This document shows positions 25,901 to 61,614 of a stretch of 64,000 bases of DNA, piece after piece. The stretch spans positions 35,216,001 through 35,280,000 of the forward strand of contig OZ024756.1 in assembly GCA_964016885.1 (NCBI GenBank), in the 5' to 3' direction. The notes under the pieces are model-generated. The model saw only the letters and a list, made by a program, of their open reading frames with translations, was not told the DNA's origin and ran no database searches. The number at the start of each line of letters is the position of its first letter. The first letter of the stretch is position 1. The stretch is from Eledone cirrhosa. Its lineage: Eukaryota. Position numbers and translations under genes: made by a program.

Positions 25901-26204
25901 TACAAGGAGATTTCCAAAATATTATTCTATTTTATTCTACCATCTCTATCACCATAACGACCATCACCAGCACCACTATCATCACTACCATTACTACCAC
26001 CATCTGTCACCAGCATCACCTTACCACTTCCACAAACATCAGTAACAAGGTCATACTACCACACCACCATCATCACTACCACACCACCACTAGCACCACC
26101 ATCCCTATCACCACACTACCACCACCACTACATCACCACATTACCACATCTACCAATTTACAAAATTCTATTTTAAGTTCCATATTTCCTCTCATTCTTA
26201 CTTC

Positions 26205-27788
26205 GTTATCCATGGAAATATCCACCAGATGTTATCCATGGAAGTATCCATCAGATGTTATCCATGGAAGTATCCATCAGATGTTATCCATGGAAGTATC
26301 CATCAGATGTTATCCATGGAAATATCCACCAGATGTTATCCATGGAAGTATCCACCAGATGTTATCCATGGTAGTATCCATCAGATGTTATCCATGGAAG
26401 TATCCACCAGATGCTATCCATGGTAGTATCCACCAGATGTTATCCATGGAAGTATCCACCAGATGTTATCCATGGAAGTATCCACCAGATGTTATCCATG
26501 GAAGTATCCACCAGATGTTATCCATGGTAGTATCCATCAGATGTTATCCATGGAAGTATCCACCAGATGTTATCCATGGAAGTATCCACCAGATGTTATC
26601 CATGGAAGTATCCACCAGATGTTATCCATGGTAGTATCCATCAGATGTTATCCATGGTAGTATCCATCAGATGTTATCCATGGAAGTATCCACCAGATGC
26701 TATCCATGGTAGTATCCACCAGATGTTATCCATGGAAGTATCCACCAGATGTTATCCATGGTAGTATCCACCAGATGTTATCCATGGAAGTATCCATCAG
26801 ATGTTATCCATGGAAGTATCCATCAGATGTTATCCATGGAAGTATCCACCAGATGTTATCCATGGAAGTATCCACCAGATGTTATCCATGGAAGTATCCA
26901 CCAGATGCTATCCATGGTAGTATCCATCAGATGTTATCCATGGAAGTATCCATCAGATGTTATCCATGGAAGTATCCATCAGATGTTATCCATGGAAGTA
27001 TCCACCAGATGCTATCCATGGAAGTATCCACCAGATGTTATCCATGGAAGTATCCACCAGATGCTATCCATGGTAGTATCCATCAGATGTTATCCATGGA
27101 AGTATCCACCAGATGTTATCCATGGAAGTATCCACCAGATGTTATCCATGGAAGTATCCACCAGATGTTATCCATGGTAGTATCCATCAGATGTTATCCA
27201 TGGTAGTATCCACCAGATGTTATCCATGGTAGTATCCACCAGATGTTATCCATGGTAGTATCCACCAGATGTTATCCATGGTAGTATCCACCAGATGTTA
27301 TCCATGGTAGTATCCACCAGATGCTATCCATGGTAGTATCCACCAGATGCTATCCATGGTAGTATCCACCAGATGTTATCCATGATAGTATCCACCAGAT
27401 GCTATCCATGGTAGTATCCATCAGATGTTATCCATGGTAGTATCCATCAGATGTTATCCATGGTAGTATCCACCAGATGCTATCCATGGTAGTATCCACC
27501 AGATGCTATCCATGGAAATATCCACCAGATGCTATCCATGGTAGTATCCACCAGATGTTATCCATGGTAGTATCCATCAGATGTTATCCATGGAAGTATC
27601 CACCAGATGTTATCCATGGTAGTATCCACCAGATGCTATCCATGGTAGTATCCACCAGATGTTATCCATGGTAGTATCCACCAGATGTTATCCATGGAAG
27701 TATCCACCAGATGTTATCCATGGTAGTATCCACCAGATGTTATCCATGGAAGTATCCACCAGATGCTATCCATGGAAATATCCATCAG
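26205..27788. repeat. 26-bp minisatellite (GTTATCCATGGWAGTATCCAYCAGAT), about 60 copies
   Basis: Head-to-tail units with no spacers. Confidence 0.97.
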
Positions 27789-28535
27789 CCCTAGCCACTA
27801 AATATGTCTCCAGAAGAGTTCATGTTCATTGTTTTGCTAACACGTTCCCTTGTTATCATTGACATTTTGTATTTATAAATTGGAAACTTTATTTTCCAAG
27901 TTGTAGTTGTTTGACAAGTTGTTTGACAAGTTGTAGTTGTTTGACAAGTTGTTTGACAAGTTGTAGTTGTTTGACAAGTTGTAGTTGTTTGACAAGTGAT
28001 TTGACCTGAGACACGTGTTGACACTAAAGCAGTTATGTTGTGCAAATAGACATTTCGGTTAGTTAAAACACATAAAAACTTATGTATTAATTTTTTGTTC
28101 TCTAAGTTAAGTTTTATTTTTAATCTACGAGTACACTTACCTTTTCTGAGATTCGTGTAGGAAGGGGTGTGATGTGTGATGACTGTTTTGATTCTGACCA
28201 AAGGGAGAAAGAGAGAGACTAGGTCTTCTGTATCTCCATTGAAAGTTATTTCAAGGTCTGTTCACAGAAGCAATGCAGGCCTGATGTGAGGTCTCTGAGT
28301 ATAAAAAGTTTTTCTTGGAGAGAAAAAAAATATCAGAGAAAAGTAAAGTTTTTAACAGTTATTTTTACTTTTTTTAAAATTATATATATAATCATCATCA
28401 TCATCATCGTTTAACGTCCATCTTCCGCACTTGCATGGGTTTGGACGGGAGTTTTCCCACTTGAGGCAAGATTGGTTGTCCTGCTCGTATAGGACTGTCT
28501 GGCAGGTTTTCTATGGCTGGATGCCCTTCCTAACA

Positions 28536-48144: not shown

Positions 48145-48769
48145 GTAAGTGAAACATTTAAAAGGATATTGAACCCCTTCCATTAAATATTCACGTTAGT
48201 CTATTGATGGCAGAAGTTTTAAAGATATTTTTTAAAATGTTTTATATTTAAAAATAATTTAACCTTTTATAAATAAATTTACACCTTTTCTTTACTAGAT
48301 TTCTGATAAGATATATTACCTGTTATTTTGAATTAATTTGAAAAATGGTAAAAAAAATGTGGTGGACTTTAGTAATAAAATTTTCTTATTATGAAGTTGA
48401 TATTTAGAACATAACTTAACAATAGTTCTTACATAAATTTTCGAAGGAAGGTTTAAATTTAAACATGAATATTTTAAAATAAATTGTTTTTCAAAATAGA
48501 ATCAGGGGTTGATTTAAGTGGGTTGGTATCAGAAGGGCTAAATTATAGGTATAAAGGTTAATAAAGACAGTAGTTAGTATAGTTTACAGGTTACACTGTT
48601 GGACCCATAAAGCCATCAGATCAATAGTTATCTAAATACAGGTGTGATATGTTTGTATTGTGGGAGATTGAAAATATGACCTATGACTGTATCACATTTT
48701 CAACTTCCTTCAGTACAGGCATATATATTGTTTTTATCTCTCTTTTAAGCATTTATATTTGTGTTTAAC

Positions 48770-49610
48770 AACATATTTGTAATGTTCTTCTGAACGAATT
48801 GCGAACAATTTAGAATGTTATTTAAGTATTTGTAATGTTGTTTATATATATATTTAAAACATATTTGCAATATTATTTATATATATATTTAAAACATTTC
48901 TAAAGTTATTTATATATATATATTTAAAACATATTTGCAATATTATTTATATATATATATATATATATATTTAAAACATTTGTAATGTTATTTATATATA
49001 TATATTTAAAACATATTTGCAATGTTATTTATATATATATATATATATATATTTAAAACATTTGTAATGTTATTTATATATATATATTTAAAACATATTT
49101 GTAATATTATTTATGTATATATTTAAAACATATTTGTAATATTATTTATATATATATATTTAAAACATATTTTTGTTATTTATATATATATTTAAAACAT
49201 TTTTATGTTTATATATATATTTAAAATACATTTGTAATGTTATTTATATATATATTTAAAACATTTGCAATGTTATTTATATATATATATATAAAACATA
49301 TTTGCAATGTTGTTTATATATATATATATAAAACATATTTGCAATGTTGTTTATATATATATATTTAAAACATTTGTAATGTTATTTATATATATATATT
49401 TAAAACATTTGTAATGTTATTTATATATATATATTTAAAACGTATTTGTAATGTTATTTATATATATATTTAAAACATATTTGTAATATTATTTATATAT
49501 ATATTTAAAACATTTGCAATGTTATTTATATATATATATATATTTAAAACATATTTGTAATGTTATTTATATATATATATAAAACATATTTGTAATGTTA
49601 TTTATACAAC
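48770..49610. repeat. AT-rich ~35-bp minisatellite with variable (TA)n (AAAACATATTTGTAATGTTATT(TA)nTTT)
   Basis: Tandem periodicity. Confidence 0.93.
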
Positions 49611-50658
49611 TGTGAATAAAACATTGACTGTATTAATTCAAGAGTGGATTATTATCCATCAGAAAGACTGGTATTTAAGTGTGTGTGAATAATTATTCCT
49701 CAAATAAGAAATACTTTTTAAAAGATCTGATGGAAATACATTAACTTAAAAGAAAATAGGTGTAAATTGTCAGGGAACAGGTTTATATATGCATAACCAA
49801 CCAAAGAAATCCTGATTATTATACATTTTTTTTCAGTTGAAATGACAAGGTCTCCTGCTTAAAAAACACATCACTAATAAATATATATATTAATCAAAAA
49901 TACTTATGAATATCTTAACTAATTATATATTTAATTTTCATTAATATATATAAATCAATTAAAAATACTAATGAATACGCCAACTAATTATATATTTGTT
50001 TATGAATTATCAGCTTCGCCATTGCACATATTCCGTTGCCTTCAAGAACTTTTTGTTGCTGCTCTTCTTCATTTTCTTTCTATTTTTTTGTTCTTAAAAT
50101 CTTTTTAAAAACAGAAACAGAAAAACTCCCCAACTACGAGTTGCTTTTTAACATTAGCATTTGTTAATTCTTTCGTTACCCTATTTCTAATGGAAGATGC
50201 TGTCTATCATTTCGAAATAGTTTTGAAAATAATCAAGAGTTTAGCAAGATATAGTAATATAACTAGCTTTTTCATTATTTAATTGATGTTTGGAATATAA
50301 TTTAACAAAGGTTCTTACATGAAATTATGATGGAAGGTTTTTTTTTTTTTAGAGAAATATAAACAATTCTAAAACGGCTTTGTATTGTACAACTGATTTC
50401 AGTTGATTTGTAATCTAAAGGGTTAATCCTATAAATTGTGACCTATAAATCTGAGGGGAAGAAGTTTTTGGTGAACTGATTCTGTGATAAGGTGGATCTG
50501 CTTTAGTTCACATATTTCTGTTCTGAAATGTATGAACATTATTTCTAAATCTCTCGCTGTCTGAGCTTATTTAAGTTAAAAAACTACATCAGTTAAAGTC
50601 TGTCCCAAGCCTATATACTCATCAGATTGAAGCTTATCCCAGTTTCAGGTGAAATTAA

Positions 50659-50859
50659 CCTTTTACCATTTACATTACTCTATATATACTATCGTATTTT
50701 GGTTAGTTATCTGACAGGATATTGAATCTATGAGATTTTAATATTATTTATTTTGAGAACAATACCTTAACATCAGTATGAGTGGCCAGTTACAGCTGGT
50801 TTGAACAGAAAGAATTGAGAGAATTCTGGCCGGATATGGCCAGTTTAAATACTAAAGGG
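50659..50859. mobile_element. piggyBac-like MITE P1
   Basis: TTAA flanks, degenerate TIR and P1 body. Confidence 0.75.
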
Positions 50860-52114
50860 TTAAGTACTGTGAGTACGCAACTAATTTCTTCAGATACTAG
50901 CCACTAATATATCATCCCTGATTATAATATTGAGGTAATAACTTAGCTACTATTTCTTGTGAAACATCTGAAGTGATACATTGGTGTAGTGGTAATGAGT
51001 ATTTCAAGGAAAACACCATTTATCAAAGCCAATAATTTGATGTGGAATAATCAACATTTAATATAGACTTTAAATATGCAGTAAGAGCCAAACAATTGCC
51101 ATCTTAAAGGCTTACTATAAATAACAGTTACATAGAAGGAAGAACAGTAATAAAGATGTGTAAGCTCATATCAAGGTTTATATGGAGCAGTCTGTTGTAT
51201 TTTTGGTTTTTCAAGAAAATATTGTATATGTAATGTATTGTAATTCCGATACTGTGTTTTTGTTGTTGTGTGTTTTTATTTTGTTAATAATTTTGAATAT
51301 TTATAAAAAAGATAACTTTGGACTGAATCCATTATCAGGGAGCTGTAAATCACATTTGAAATTGGCCTAATTAAGATAGATTACTCTAAGAAGGCTCTTT
51401 TACAGGCTGGTTTGCTATAGATCTTTACAGCCAGTATAGCCATAAATATGTAGAAACATTCCTATAAAAATAACAGCCCTTTGATGGTCTTAGAATTGCA
51501 ACTATTTTCTTTCACAGAAGTCAGGTTACTGTTGATAAATATATTATAACAAAACTTTCTGCTTTTGAAACACAAGTTTGTGTCTTCCTGCAGCTTCTAT
51601 TCTTCTTAGGCAAGGTTTTTAACTCTACTTGCTAAATGTTTCAATTTACTGTGTGATTTGTGCTGAAAATGCTTCTCTCATGTATTCAATTATTCTTATT
51701 TATTTTTCTGTTTGGTTAGTTAGATTGTTACTTCTTTATATATAGTACTTAACACTATTTGCTATAAAGTAGTTTCTTGTCTTTCCTATTTACTATGTGA
51801 TATTAAGTAGCTTCTTTATCTTTAGTACTTACTAAAAGTTGATAGAGAATAGTTTGTTTTATATTTAGTACTTACTACTAGTTAATATAAAGTAGTTTTA
51901 TATATTTAGTACTTACTATTAGTTCATATAAAGTAGTGCTGTATATCTAGTACTCATCACTAGTTAATAGAGTAGTTCTGTATATTTAGTGCTTGTTACT
52001 AGTTAATATAAAGTAGTTCTGTATATTTAGTACATATTACTAGTTAATATAGAGTAGTTTCTTCTTTTTATAACATTTTAAGTAGTTACTGTCTTCATTA
52101 TAAAGCACTATAGG

Positions 52115-53868
52115 AGTGTTTGCAGCAGTGTAGTGTTTGCAGCAGTGTAGTGTCTGCAGCAGTGTAGTGTAGTGTCTGCAGCAGTGTAGTGTCTGCAGCA
52201 GTGTAGTGTAGTGTCTGCAGCAGTGTAGTGTAGTGTCTGCAGCAGTGTAGTTTCTGCAGTAGTGTCTGCAGCGGTGTCATGTCTGCAGCGGTGTCGTGTC
52301 TGCAGCGGTGTCGTGTCTGCAGCGGTGTCGTGTCTGCAGCGGTGTCGTGTCTGCAGCGGTGTCGTGTCTGCAGCGGTGTCGTGTCTGCAGCGGTGTCGTG
52401 TCTGCAGCGGTGTCGTGTCTGCAGCGGTGTCGTGCTTGCAGCGGTGTCGTGTCTGCAGCGGTGTCGTGTCTGCAGCGGTGTCGTGTCTGCAGTGGTCTAG
52501 TGTCTGCAGTGGTGTCGTGTCTGCAGCGGTGTAGTGTCTGCAGCAGTCTAGTGTCTGCAGCAGTGTGGTGTCGTGTCTGCAGTAGTGTCTACAGTGGTGT
52601 CGTGTCTGGAGTGGTGTTGTCTGCAGCAGTGTAGTGTCTGCAGCAGTGTAGTGTCTGCAGCAGTGTAGTGTCTGCAGCAGTGTAGTGTCTGCAGCAGTGT
52701 AGTGTCTGCAGTAGTGTCTGCAGCGGTGTCGTGCTTGCTGCGGTGTAGTGCTTGCAGCAGTGTAGTGTCTGCAGCAGTGTCATGTCTGCAGCGGTGTAGT
52801 GTCTGCAGCAGTGTAGTGCTTGCAGTGGTGTAGTGTCTGCAGCAGTGTAGTGTCTGCAGCGGTGTAGTGTCTGCAGCAGTGTAGTGTCTGCAGCGGTGTA
52901 GTGTCTGCAGCAGTGTAGTGTCTGCAGCGGTGTAGTGCTTGCAGCAGTGTAGTGTCTGCAGCAGTGTAGTGCTTGCAGCAGTGTAGTGCTTGCAGCAGTG
53001 TAGTGCTTGCAGCAGTGTAGTGCTTGCAGCAGTGTAGTGCTTGCAGCAGTGTAGTGCTTGCAGCAGTGTAGTGTCTGCAGCAGTGTAGTGCTTGCAGCAG
53101 TGTAGTGTCTGCAGCAGTGTAGTGTCTGCAGCGGTGTAGTGTCTGCAGCGGTGTAGTGTCTGCAGCGGTGTAGTGTCTGCAGCGGTGTAGTGTCTGCAGC
53201 GGTGTAGTGTCTGCAGCGGTGTAGTGCTTGCAGCGGTGTAGTGCTTGCAGCGGTGTAGTGTCTGCAGCGGTGTAGTGTCTGCAGCGGTGTAGTGTCTGCA
53301 GCGGTGTAGTGCTTGCAGCGGTGTAGTGTCTGCAGCAGTGTAGTGTCTGCAGCAGTGTAGTGTCTGCAGCAGTGTAGTGTCTGCAGCAGTGTAGTGTCTG
53401 CAGCAGTGTAGTGCTTGCAGCAGTGTAGTGTCTGCAGCAGTGTAGTGCTTGCAGCAGTGTAGTGTCTGCAGCAGTGTAGTGTCTGCAGCGGTGTAGTGTC
53501 TGCAGCGGTGTAGTGTCTGCAGCGGTGTAGTGTCTGCAGCGGTGTAGTGTCTGCAGCGGTGTAGTGTCTGCAGCGGTGTAGTGCTTGCAGCGGTGTAGTG
53601 CTTGCAGCGGTGTAGTGTCTGCAGCGGTGTAGTGTCTGCAGCGGTGTAGTGTCTGCAGCGGTGTAGTGCTTGCAGCGGTGTAGTGTCTGCAGCAGTGTAG
53701 TGTCTGCAGCAGTGTAGTGTCTGCAGCAGTGTAGTGTCTGCAGCAGTGTAGTGTCTGCAGCAGTGTAGTGCTTGCAGCAGTGTAGTGTCTGCAGCAGTGT
53801 AGTGCTTGCAGCAGTGTAGTGTCTGCAGCAGTGTAGTGTCTGCAGCAGTGTAGTGTCTGCAGCAGTGT
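52115..53868. repeat. 17-bp minisatellite (GTGTCTGCAGCRGTGTA), about 100 copies
   Basis: Tandem units with GTCT/GCTT and CAG/CGG variants. Confidence 0.97.
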
Positions 53869-53913
53869 AAGGACTAAACAACCCAGATAAAATATTCTAA
53901 AATCTTCCATTAA

Positions 53914-54336
53914 CCCTTTACCATTTACATTACTCTATATTTACTATTGTATTTTGAAAGTAAAGGCTTTATCTTACATAATTATCTCACATTATATTGA
54001 ATCAATATGGTGGATTGGCAGTATCGATAGAGGGTCGGATGCCATGCTTTCCAGCATAGAGTTACGGCCCTTTATGGTCTGAGTTCAAATCCCACCGAGG
54101 TTAACTTTGCCTTTCATCCTTACGGGGTCGATAAAATAAAGTACCAGTAATGCACTGGGATAATTGCTGGCCTTGTGCTAAAAGTAGAAACAATTATATT
54201 GAATCAATGAGATTTTAATATTATTTATTTTGAGAACAATACGTTAACATTAGTATGAGTGGCTAGTTAGGGTTGGTTTGAACAGAAAGAGGTGAGAGAA
54301 TTCTGGTCGATTACGGCCGGTTTGAATGCTAAAGGG
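53914..54336. mobile_element. MITE P1 with nested family A SINE (54007-54192)
   Basis: TTAA-flanked TIRs; SINE bounded by a 16-bp TSD ATTATATTGAATCAAT. Confidence 0.9.
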
Positions 54337-54518
54337 TTAAGTAAACAATCTTACTTTACATTTTAACGATGGCTTCTAGAAGAATTAAAAAAAATAAGAA
54401 ACTCTTACCTGTTTTCAGCATCAAAGAATTATAAAAGATTTTGTTTTGTATTTCTTCCCCACCCTCTCAAAGAAATTAGTCCCACTCCAGTGTCTCTTCT
54501 TATTAGGCAATTATTTAA

Positions 54519-54739
54519 CCCTTTAGCATTTACATCATTTTATATTTACTATTATATTTTCACAGTAAAGGCTTTATCTCGCGTAATTATTTCACATAAT
54601 ATCGAATATATGAGATTTTGATATTATTTATTTTGAGAACAATACCTTAACATCAGAATGAGAGGCCAGTTATAGCCAGTTTGAACAGAAAGAGGTGAGA
54701 GAATTCTTGCTGGATATGACTGGTTTAAATGCTAAAGGG
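54519..54739. mobile_element. piggyBac-like MITE P1
   Basis: TTAA|CCCTTTAGCATTTA...TAAATGCTAAAGGG|TTAA. Confidence 0.88.
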
Positions 54740-57700
54740 TTAATTGTGTTAAAATAAGTCAAGTTAATGTTCTATATCCTTAATGACTGTAATAATGTTG
54801 ATATATTACAGCTGTTTGGAGGTTCTTCTTGTTAAGACACATTTAATATTTAATATACCATAAATCTACTGCAATTGTCTGTTTAAGTATTACCAATCTA
54901 TTCTAGATGTTCGTTTGTCTGAACTACTCTGTTCAGGTGCCTCAATAATAGAAGAGACATTAAAACTACACAAAACAAAACAACCTTGAAATGTCTTCGT
55001 TAAAATGACCCCTCCCTTCACTACCTCCCTCCCTATCTTGTAGAATTGTAACTATGTGCATTTGCATTCTATGTCTGCAGCAGTCGCTCATCTGTAACTC
55101 TGGTTTGGTCGTTTTTTCCTAAGACTCGGTATCTATAAATTTCTCCTCTCTCTAAAGTCAATGTCACTTTTTTCGCTTTTTTTTTCTTCTTTCCGTACAC
55201 CTCTTAGTTGTTATTATTATTATATATACAATTTTTTTTATTATTTTTTTTAATTTTTTTTTTACACACAAAATTGCCCATTTGTACCATCCTGTGCTGT
55301 CCTTAATGTTATACTTTGTCAACCCTTGTGGTTAATAAAGAAAGCATTATTTTTATTATTATTATTATTAATGTTATTAATTTTATTTTGCTCCCTTATC
55401 TGCAGGGAATTTCCATCCCCCCAAAAAAGCCTACAAAAAATAAAGACCACCTCAATGGAATCCCAAATGATTGTCTTTACCTATTATTATGTAGTCACAC
55501 GGTTTATTATTTTATCCCCCATTTAGTTAGCTGCTGCTGTTGCTGCTGTTGCTGCTCATTTCTTTGTTTTTTCACTTTTTTCTATATTGAAATCTTGATT
55601 ATATTATTTACTTTATTATTTATTGTTACCATTATTATTATTAAAGAAATCATTATTATTATTATTGAGGGCGTTGGATTGCAGCATAGAGTTATGGCCC
55701 TTTATGATCTGAGTTCAAATCCCGCCGAGGTTAACTTTGCCTTTCATCCTTACAGGGTTGATAAAATAAAGTACCAGTCACGCACTGGGGTCGATTTAAT
55801 TGACTTTCCCCTCCCCCCGGGAATTGCTGGCCTTGTGCCTATATAAGAAACCATTATTATTATTATTATTATTATAGGGGCGGTGGATTAGAAAAGTCGT
55901 TAAAGCGTCGGACAAAATGCTTTTCAGCATTTAGTTACGACCTCTTATTATTCAATTTACTCAATGTTATTCATTCTTTCAACTTCCATTGTTCATTTAT
56001 CCATTTCCTCCATAGGTTGAAGAAATTTTGCCCTTTTATTTCTTATTTATTTGGATGAAAAGCTTTGTATTAAATAGTACCTTGCTGGGGTTTTTTCTCC
56101 TTCTCCTTCACATTTTCATTTATTGAAATACATTTTTTTTCTGGTGCAATCAAAGGAACAGAATAAATAGAAAAACTAATTGCTCAGGAATAGACCAGAT
56201 AGACTAATTAGAAATGTTCTGGTTTAACTTCCTAACAAAATAACAATTTGATAAACTTAATGATTGTGATGGGAGTTTAATAGTTAGTTTGTACTGATGA
56301 AGCATAACAAAACAGAAACAATGGATTGTATGTGAATATTTGAAGAATAAATATTAATGGAATAAATATTACAGCTGCAACAACAGAATCTGAATGAATC
56401 ATCATCATTATCACAGTTTAACATCCATTTTCCACACTAGCATGGGTTTGACGATTTTTCCCGTTGTGAGACAAGTCAGTTCAGGTGACTCCTCACCACA
56501 GGTACACTGCAGTAACTCGACTTAACCTGTGTCCCTCCACTAGAATAGCTACCAACTGTATTCTGCCCTTACTCTCCCTTCCAATATCTACCACCCCTTC
56601 AATACCACACACCAACTGTACTCTCTCTGTCCTCCTCCACCACTACGCTATCTAACACCCCCTTCCCTTCCCCCATTGTTCTATTTGTTCTGTTCTTTGG
56701 AAGATCTCAGTTGCTGACAATCTGCAGCTAAATATATAATTTTTCACTTTAAAACTTGCTTTAAATTTTTGCACCAAAACCAATGAATGTTTTCCTTGAG
56801 TCAGTCTTTGGCAAACCTATTATTATTATTATTATTGAAGCCTGCTTAGCCTGTCACAGAGCATGGTATTATACGTACTTTACATTAAGATATTCATTCA
56901 TTTTTCTTTTTAATTTTTTTTTTTCTCCTATGTATACCAGTTAACACCTCGGGTACTTAATACCTCAGGTGCTTGACACCTCGAATACTTGACACCTTCG
57001 GTACTTGATACACAAGGTACTTGATACTCAAAGTACTTAAAGAGGGTGTGCTGATCCTTGTACACTTGGTCATTGATATATAAGTTAAATGCCATGATTA
57101 AATGTTTGTGTAATATATATATATACAGAGATGGTTAATTGGCAGTCATTAGAGTGTCGGGTTAATTGCCTTGCCAGTGTTTGTTCTGGTCTGTTGTGAT
57201 TAGAGTTCAAATCCTGCCAAAGTCAGCTTTGTCTTCCATCCTTTTGGAGTAGATAAAATAAAGTACCAGACCTGGAAGCAGTGGATTAGCAGAATTGTTA
57301 GAACATCAGGCAAGATGCTTTGTGGTGCTTGTTCAGGCTCTTTGCATTTTGTTTTTGTACATAGAAGTGAAGATGTGTGGCCTAGTGTTTAGGGTGTTGG
57401 ACTTATGATCTTAATGTCGTGGGTTCAATTCCTGGACTATGTTGTGCATTGTGTTCTTAAGCAAAACACCTCATTTCATGGTGCCCCGGTACACTCAGCT
57501 GAAAAGGAGTATCAGTAAGTAGCTGGGGCTTAACCTTGTGATGGACTGACGTCTTGTTGAGAGAAGAGTCTTGTAACTCTCAGTCACTTAACATTAATGA
57601 AACTGGGGTAAGCACTGGCATAATGTGCTTCCAGGCTTGGGCAGCCTTTAACCTTTTTTTAATGTCGAGGTAGCGAATTGGCAGAGTTATTAGAGATTAG

Positions 57701-58320
57701 GAGAAAATGCTTGTGGTATTTGTTCCAGATTTTTGTGCTCTAAGTACAAATCTGCCTTCTTCTTGCCCTTGCTCAATGAGGCCGGGGTCATACTAAGCCA
57801 TCGATCCCAAAGCATCATTGTGCTTAGAGCTGACCATGTCCACCGGCACCATCCATCGTCAAATCCTATTGAGGTATTTATTCTGACACTAACAAATCTA
57901 CCAATATACCACCCATGTTTATAAATAGTGTAAAAATAAAAACAGAACTGAAATAGACAGAAAAAGCCAGTGTTGTTATCACACCCTGTATGAATAGGTA
58001 CCTCTAGTATGGTTATAATATATATTTGGTACATAGCTTGTTGACATCTCTGGTGTATAATGTTTTGATGTGTCTCATATTTCCTTCTCTTCTAGATTTC
58101 CAGATTATTGGCAGTACCATTATTGAAATAATTCTTTTATATTTGTCTTGGGCTTAATGTTATCATAATTCTTGAAATTTATATATATCTGTACATTTTA
58201 TCTTATATGATGACGATTTATATATAATATATATATAAATATATATATATACATACTGTATATAAAATAATTAAGTCAAATATGTAAAATTTGGCTTTGT
58301 TTATTATAAATTATAGATAT

Positions 58321-58375
58321 ACTGCTATATATATTTCGGTGACAGCCATCATTGGCTGTGACCTCTTCAGGCAGT
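58321..58375 (-). ncRNA. Minimal type-I hammerhead ribozyme motif
   Basis: ACUGC-CUGAAGA-GGUcACAGCCA(auga)UGGCUGUcACC-GAAA-UAUAUAUA-GCAGU: stem I, conserved core, stem II, palindromic stem III, AUA triplet. Confidence 0.75.
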
Positions 58376-58469
58376 CCGAATTGGTGTGGGAGAGACAGGT
58401 ACACATGTTGTTGAAGGAGTAAAACACACTTCAACAACATGTGTACCTGTCTTTCCCACACCAATTCGG

Positions 58470-58524
58470 ACTGCCTGAAGAGGTCACAGCCAATGATGGC
58501 TGTCACTGAAATATATATAGCAGT
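58470..58524 (+). ncRNA. Minimal type-I hammerhead ribozyme motif (sense to Piezo)
   Basis: Same motif with a G.U instead of G-C closing stem II; predicted cleavage after A58519. Confidence 0.7.
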
Positions 58525-58676
58525 ATATCTATAATTTATAATAAACAAAGCCAAATTTTACATATTTGACTTAATTATTTTACATTACTCCGGAGTAAAC
58601 AAACCAACCTGCGTACTTCGTTGAGTGCTCCAATCTGCATACTGAGGTGTCGGTAAACAACCAACATGTACTCAAA

Positions 58677-58714
<38 letters not shown>

Positions 58715-59189
58715 CAACAAAGTTGCTGTCTCTCTCTACCTCTCCCTCTGTTTTCTGTTGTCTGTCTCTACTTCTCTTTCACTTCTACTGTCTGGCTTCT
58801 TTCTCAATCCTCTCCCTATCTCTGTCTCTTTTTCACATACACTCTCTCTCTCCCATTGTCTTTTCTCTCACTCTGCTACTTGTCTGTCTATACCCTATGG
58901 TTCTAAATTTTCCTATCTTGCAAAAGTACCCCATCTTGCCAAAATATCACCAAAGTGCCCTATTTTTGCTGACATATTCCATCTTGCCAAAATTTTACTT
59001 AAGTACCCCATTTTTGCTGAAAAATCCCATGTTGGTAAAATTTTACCAAAGTACCTTATTTTTGTTGAAATATCCCATCTTGCCAAAATTTTTACCATAG
59101 TACCCTATTTTTGCTGACATATCCCATGTTGTTGAAGTACTCCACTCCATGTCACTAAATACTCACTGAAGTTCTTTATTTCTGTCCAG

Positions 59190-61353: not shown

Positions 61354-61390
<37 letters not shown>

Positions 61391-61433
61391 GACGAAACAT
61401 AAGTCAATTGCATGAACTCGTAAACCTTTATTT

Positions 61434-61489
61434 ACTGCTATATATATTTCAATGATAGCCATTGGATGGCTATGACCTCATCAGGCAGT
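61434..61489 (-). ncRNA. Minimal type-I hammerhead ribozyme motif (second family member)
   Basis: ACUGC-CUGAUGA-GGUcAUAGCCA(uccaa)UGGCUAUcAUU-GAAA-UAUAUAUA-GCAGU; compensatory change relative to the 58-kb copies. Confidence 0.7.
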
Positions 61490-61548
61490 TAGTCAGTTCT
61501 TAGATATGCCAGCTCTGTGTTTATAGTGTTGATGGTATCAGAGCCTAG

Positions 61549-61614
<66 letters not shown>

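Follow-up and report, generated by a model that had tools for sequence, protein, structure and literature searches.

The window analysed here is a 64-kb stretch (C17:35216001-35280000) of a 3.0-Gb assembly in which exons of Piezo lie on the forward strand. The exon at 59190-59375 matches the Piezo_TM25-28 domain (Pfam PF15917, E 1.2e-17), and since it joins in phase with the upstream exon, whose donor GT is at 48145 (58 within the region of that exon), with the acceptor at 59189, the sequence between them (48145-59189, + strand) would be a Piezo intron of approximately 11 kb, as judged from its GT/AG sites and the in-phase join. A long hairpin lies within this intron, 607 nt before the acceptor and upstream of the exon on the same strand, as a preliminary description of this DNA had placed it. 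Two tandem repeats are also present, namely a degenerate 48-nt repeat at 58918-59141, directly before the acceptor, and a long short-period array at about 26170-27860, inside a Piezo intron and visible as repetitive open frames.

The hairpin is built of two arms of 154 nt, a left arm at 58263-58416 (- strand) and a right arm at 58429-58582 (+ strand, sense to Piezo), so that the antisense arm is the first to be transcribed in the Piezo pre-mRNA. The alignment of the arms bore out the loop of 12 nt and the two G:T differences that had been described (G58392/T58453 and G58338/T58507, the only mismatches from arm to arm), and the fold check gave the hairpin RNA -269.6 kcal/mol with a z of -40.7, which was equalled by 0 of 100 shuffles. 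The extent of 58263-58582 holds for the arms as such; however, the feature is larger, because the right arm continues into a tail of approximately 100 nt (58583-58682, + strand), with homology reaching about 58682, where (TA)n begins (58680-58707). The left arm has no such tail, and ends at what we will refer to as the tail-less 3' site of the family, followed by TA-rich target DNA (58218-58262). Both arms are 5'-truncated copies of a pLTR, and they meet head to head at 58411-58428, a junction made of a microhomology (58411-58416, 5 of 6 nt) and of the loop at 58417-58428, which is extra 5' sequence of the right arm. As both hairpin ends sit in TA runs, a target-site duplication cannot be told apart from (TA)n.

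Type-I hammerheads were sought by a descriptor scan on both strands of the window, which returned three, one in each arm and one at 61434-61489 (- strand), while the Rfam scan of the whole window at the gathering threshold gave 0 matches. The sense hammerhead of the right arm (58470-58524, + strand) has its stem I at 58470-74/58520-24, CUGAAGA at 58475-81, GAAA at 58508-11, a stem II of 10 bp with one C.C mismatch and a palindromic stem III (AUAUAUAU), with the predicted cut between 58519 and 58520; the features of a minimal type-I hammerhead of Penelope-like elements (PLEs), i.e., CUGANGA/GAAA/UH, helix I and a palindromic helix III, are thus all present. The antisense hammerhead (58321-58375, - strand) is its mirror copy, and the core, stem I, stem II and palindromic stem III were recovered in each arm. 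The claim of a complete hammerhead in both arms was therefore right as regards the core, which is present twice, but the two are not equivalent, since the antisense motif keeps the G10.1-C11.1 pair of the family, whereas the sense motif has a derived G10.1.U11.1 (T58507). The equivalent of position 58507 is C in 73 of 78 aligned family arms, and all 30 full-length matches (loci chosen with a probe outside the ribozyme) differ from the window there, so the antisense arm represents the intact form and the sense arm the derived one. Judged from sequence, T58507 is a private change of CpG type, predicted to break the G10.1-C11.1 pair of the sense ribozyme. The preliminary description had also turned on whether other genomic copies conserve the core, and 19 of the same 30 matches keep both the core and stem I.

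Minimal PLE hammerheads were characterised by Cervera and de la Pena (2014, PMC4209133) as type I with a 5-bp helix I, a long helix II and a palindromic helix III suited to dimers, all of which is found here, and the same paper reports dual minimal hammerheads on opposite strands, 100-700 bp apart. Unlike those it describes, the present motif lacks a base bulging out between positions 9 and 10.1, and its sense arm carries G10.1.U11.1. A literature search on octopus gave no paper on hammerheads. In the folding model, the stem I pair probability is 0.78 in the isolated 55-nt motif, 0.02 in the right arm alone and approximately 1e-55 in the hairpin, so that the proposed locking of the sense ribozyme by the antisense arm is borne out at the level of computed folds; the computed dimer energies are -35.8 kcal/mol (sense) and -41.0 kcal/mol (antisense). 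In vitro, a comparable minimal PLE hammerhead did not cleave as a monomer and cleaved little as a dimer (PMC4209133), and in another study hammerhead cleavage was found only with protein present (PMC11167929). Since published minimal PLE hammerheads cleave poorly in vitro, the host pre-mRNA may need little protection, and it is plausible from the modelled folds that the locking is a by-product of geometry, bearing no sign of selection.

The ribozyme sequence is abundant in the genome, with 427 exact copies of a 50-nt stretch (control 0), and a query with the arm gave 1341 first-look candidates, of which the best 42 matches are 98-100% identical. Walking upstream from the arm leads into one open reading frame (ORF) with reverse transcriptase (RT) motifs, a linker and, C-terminally, a GIY-YIG domain, although the PF01541 match of the latter (E 0.0037) is below the cut-off, and Pfam gave no RT match for the family or for four homologues. 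A search with the RT part found 11 homologues among 1704 candidates (468-806 aa, 35-47% identity), and the best of them (759 aa) aligns in order over residues 1-751 along five long copies, all of which are frameshifted; no intact full-length ORF was seen among these five. In L114 a pLTR with its tail stands directly before the ORF start, as a partial tandem, and L113 likewise shows a pLTR tandem before the ORF; the tail in such tandem copies is the sequence from the pLTR end to a point some 50 nt short of where the RT ORF starts. In both L115 and L117, the 5' end carries a tailed copy in inverted orientation, and the 3' end is tail-less. In L067, a rearranged long copy of the element encloses an inverted repeat of 1135 nt (98% identical).

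The placement of the element was made by protein motifs and target type. Among motif matches from 42 partly overlapping loci, MRWR occurs in 10 (R replaces the K of RWK) and DKT in 9 (NKT in 2), CNCx5C is present in 18 of 19 linker matches and CKLC-LSE..N..CRH in 8 matches; between the GIY and YIG boxes there is at most one Cys in every match and CCHH is absent, while the 3' ends of the element fall in (TA)n. The marks given for the Hydra clade in PMC8557442 are RW[K/R], DKT, CxCx5C, CxxC/CxH around E and N, the absence of a Cys pair between the GIY and YIG boxes, and (TA)n targets. The Neptune and Nematis clades were considered and dropped, as the CX2-5CxxC linker and the CCHH motif are not present. 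Going by these motifs, the arms are the 3' end (pLTR) of a high-copy EN+ Penelope-like retrotransposon of Hydra-clade type, and the proposed Penelope-like link is upheld by an RT and GIY-YIG ORF continuous with the arm sequence, as well as by the 427 exact ribozyme copies. The Hydra-clade EN+ PLEs of Craig et al. (2021, PMC8557442; Penelope-13_HM, Hydra-1_Obim) share with it a single RT-GIY-YIG ORF, the clade motifs, (TA)n targets and a 3' type-I hammerhead. However, the present hammerhead matches none of the Hydra rows of File S2 that were compared, and an exact 13-mer from it does not occur in the text of the supplement; the element is also larger, measuring 3.1 kb in L115 between the ORF start and the 3' end where those of the Hydra clade are mostly <3 kb, and the 10-bp stem II and the tail of about 100 nt are features of its own. 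By sequence comparison, it is thus a different family from the Hydra-clade families compared.

The third hammerhead of the window belongs to a stub of a sister family (61387-61553, - strand), which has no tail and is flanked by (TA)n runs inside the Piezo intron that follows. Its stems I and III are the same as in the main family, while stem II has a C-G to U-A double change. This sister family yielded 362 first-look candidates (best 40 at 96-100%), with a homologous tail in 2 of 20 fetched copies, and in L114 (2940-3110) one of its stubs stands head to head with a full-length main-family copy, with a (TA)n run between them.

The head-to-head layout is repeated across the genome. An inverted piece is found at the 5' end in 16 of 57 loci, and the first 100 listed of the 427 exact ribozymes include six pairs within 2 kb, all head to head and five within 350 nt; no tandem (head-to-tail) pair within 2 kb occurs among those 100. 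The junction is as tight as in the Piezo copy (exact pattern) at four loci, while junctions and arm lengths vary between loci. The pair set was picked by similarity and comprised 24 loci, 23 of them pairs; one arm with a tail and one without was the arrangement in 19 of the 23 (two of the 19 duplicate others), and two tails were seen in 0 of 23. The four deviating pairs are L005, L029, L111 and L112, the last of which (C2:80001300-80004300) has two tail-less head-to-head arms, identical at 234 of 234 nt, around a 1.3-kb unrelated spacer. The family has two fixed 3' ends approximately 100 nt apart, both in TA-rich DNA, with variable 5' ends and short overlaps at the junctions. Separately, about two thirds of the fetched short copies (L002-L030) start at one CATATG-type site, approximately 60 nt upstream of the junction point; this is a strong hot spot of 5' truncation or start, and many sister-family copies begin there too. 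For copies that begin, on a TA run, with the cut site of the ribozyme, there were five exact matches and no sign of enrichment.

A short, non-coding unit bearing hammerheads could also be a non-LTR retrozyme, or a MITE-like DNA element with hammerheads by chance in its terminal inverted repeats, and the shared start of many copies about 60 nt upstream of the junction would agree with this. We consider it very improbable, because the sequence runs without a break into an RT-EN ORF, the loci vary in junction and arm length, and the 100 listed ribozymes contain no tandem pair within 2 kb. Metazoan non-LTR retrozymes (PMC7229834; bioRxiv 10.64898/2026.07.22.740005) have in common with the arms a type-I hammerhead and kinship with PLE pLTRs, but as described there they are head-to-tail tandem units without an ORF, whereas here the units stand head to head and are part of a coding element. 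For the family as such, the retrozyme reading is largely refuted, since head-to-tail tandem units were not found among the 100 listed ribozymes and a coding partner in cis is present.

A twin of the hairpin (L003, L033, L104) lies at C17:35748454-35748779, in the same orientation and 474 kb from the Piezo copy, with its junction at C17:35748597. The junction sequence is found twice in the assembly, also when two mismatches are allowed, and the twins have in common a left-arm base that is in the minority (C, present in 10 of the 74 other arms) and the rare tail base T58622 (2 of 42), so that, on the sequences compared, descent from one origin is well supported. A few changes, mostly of CpG type, have separated them since. 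One CpG change of the window copy is mirrored in both arms (58298/58547) and lacking in the twin, which hints at arm-to-arm conversion. The homology of the twins ends at TA runs on both sides, and segmental duplication was rejected as no unique flank is held in common within the 10 kb fetched. An identical junction without a common unique flank suggests that a single event copied the stub in one piece.

The twin also bears on the trustworthiness of the assembly. Near-perfect palindromes are a recognised class of sequencing and assembly artefacts, and a fold-back of this kind could give two such arms. That would leave unexplained that the arms differ at two sites, that the left arm stops at the natural 3' end of the family with unique DNA resuming after it, that the flanking Piezo exons are collinear and that the junction recurs at a second locus whose mutations and flanks are its own; we regard an artefact as extremely unlikely. 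No listed contig and no reduced-representation read (one set) bridges the junction, but two of the runs leave the single-copy flank uncovered as well, and rare paths are lost from contigs.

Taken together, the hairpin is very probably made of two 5'-truncated, ribozyme-bearing 3' repeats of a Hydra-type PLE, joined head to head at a TA-rich site in a Piezo intron, likely in one insertion event and likely with no host function. Such a layout is already in print as an inverted 5'-truncated copy with a one-sided tail (PMC8557442, PMC3846280), and Penelope-13_HM is listed with an inverted 5'-truncated copy, one and the same hammerhead being present on each strand (supplement of PMC8557442). Inverted-pLTR insertions (Pen2a_Av, PMC3846280; Fig. 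2 of PMC8557442) show, as here, a head-to-head truncated copy, overlap or microhomology at the junction and one tail, whereas the two Piezo copies are both <270 nt, with no target-site duplication visible in (TA)n. Since both copies are truncated to this length, only a hairpin is left at the Piezo locus. No empty-site allele was seen.

To hypothesize, the GIY-YIG nuclease of the element would cut TA-rich DNA, and both cut ends would prime RT at two fixed points, the left arm starting at the pLTR end with no tail, and the right arm approximately 100 nt further on, in the 5' leader, with the tail. Both cDNAs would end early and join via short microhomology, and the hammerhead, being the element's own, would be carried along passively. 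In the Piezo pre-mRNA the arms would then zip into a duplex and mask the sense ribozyme as a geometric by-product, and the decay of the copy since insertion has been mainly at CpG sites; CpG transitions are 3 of the 4 non-junction changes in the right arm and tail. Two-ended priming is inferred by analogy with the Anolis Poseidon element PAc, where two RT start sites bound the tail and both strands were cut and extended in vitro (PMC11167929). As in the present family, the tail downstream of the hammerhead in PAc is delimited by two fixed 3' ends and the targets are AT-rich, but PAc belongs to another clade, and its start sites are inside the ORF, whereas here both are upstream of the ORF start. 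Against the reading as a whole, the tail/no-tail rule is broken by 4 of 23 pairs, the twin 474 kb away requires an extra step, and the tail of about 100 nt exceeds the 30-40 nt of the published accounts compared.

The second arm might instead be the product of self-priming, in which one cDNA (or an antisense template) folds onto itself at a short internal inverted match, with the identity of the element unchanged. Arkhipova and colleagues proposed this for inverted pLTRs (Discussion of PMC3846280), and both the junction microhomology of 5 of 6 nt and the clustering of junctions of other copies at a palindrome-forming site are in line with it. In 19 of 23 pairs, however, the 3' ends of the two arms lie at distinct fixed sites, and the 58392/58453 difference is present in both twin copies, where a direct fold-back copy would need a later change, so we hold self-priming to be a possible but less likely route than two-ended priming.

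The preliminary description suggested that the arrangement could serve the host, and a selected function of this kind would have the antisense arm lock an active ribozyme, protect the Piezo pre-mRNA and supply an ADAR/Dicer substrate tuning the next exon. Geometry and folding permit it, and so does the location 607 nt before the acceptor. Nevertheless, the same layout is present at many unrelated family loci and matches a published insertion form, the sense ribozyme has lost G10.1-C11.1 and the copy decays at CpG like its sister copies; moreover, both arms most probably came in together, with no later addition of a lock. This part of the description was not supported, and a selected host function seems to us highly unlikely. 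As for fixed editing marks, the paired loci have A>G at 48 of 3719 and T>C at 49 of 2926 sites and the solo loci 63 of 4794 and 46 of 3778, i.e., no excess, and the window copy has one change of each type. Since the layout is already in print and is repeated across the genome, the hairpin is likely a passive insertion scar and not a host switch.

The stub itself could also be mobile: the enzymes of the element, acting in trans on hairpin RNA (e.g., from the Piezo intron), would have copied the entire hairpin into another (TA)n site at a distance of 474 kb, so that dead Penelope stubs could found MITE-like palindromic families; we judge this improbable as it stands. Copying at the DNA level from one TA tract to another accounts for the same observations on the twin, is at least as likely as the RNA route and is favoured because the twins lie close together.

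As the head-to-head layout is already known, the Piezo copy is one of many insertion stubs and nothing singles it out. Its family, however, adds a high-copy member to the small Hydra clade and offers a usable record of PLE insertion, with two sharp 3' ends 100 nt apart and head-to-head joins, for a step still unexplained in the literature compared here. Taken as a group, stubs of this kind supply long double-stranded RNA in introns, and an origin of the twin through RNA would mean that short fold-back stubs are themselves mobile units.
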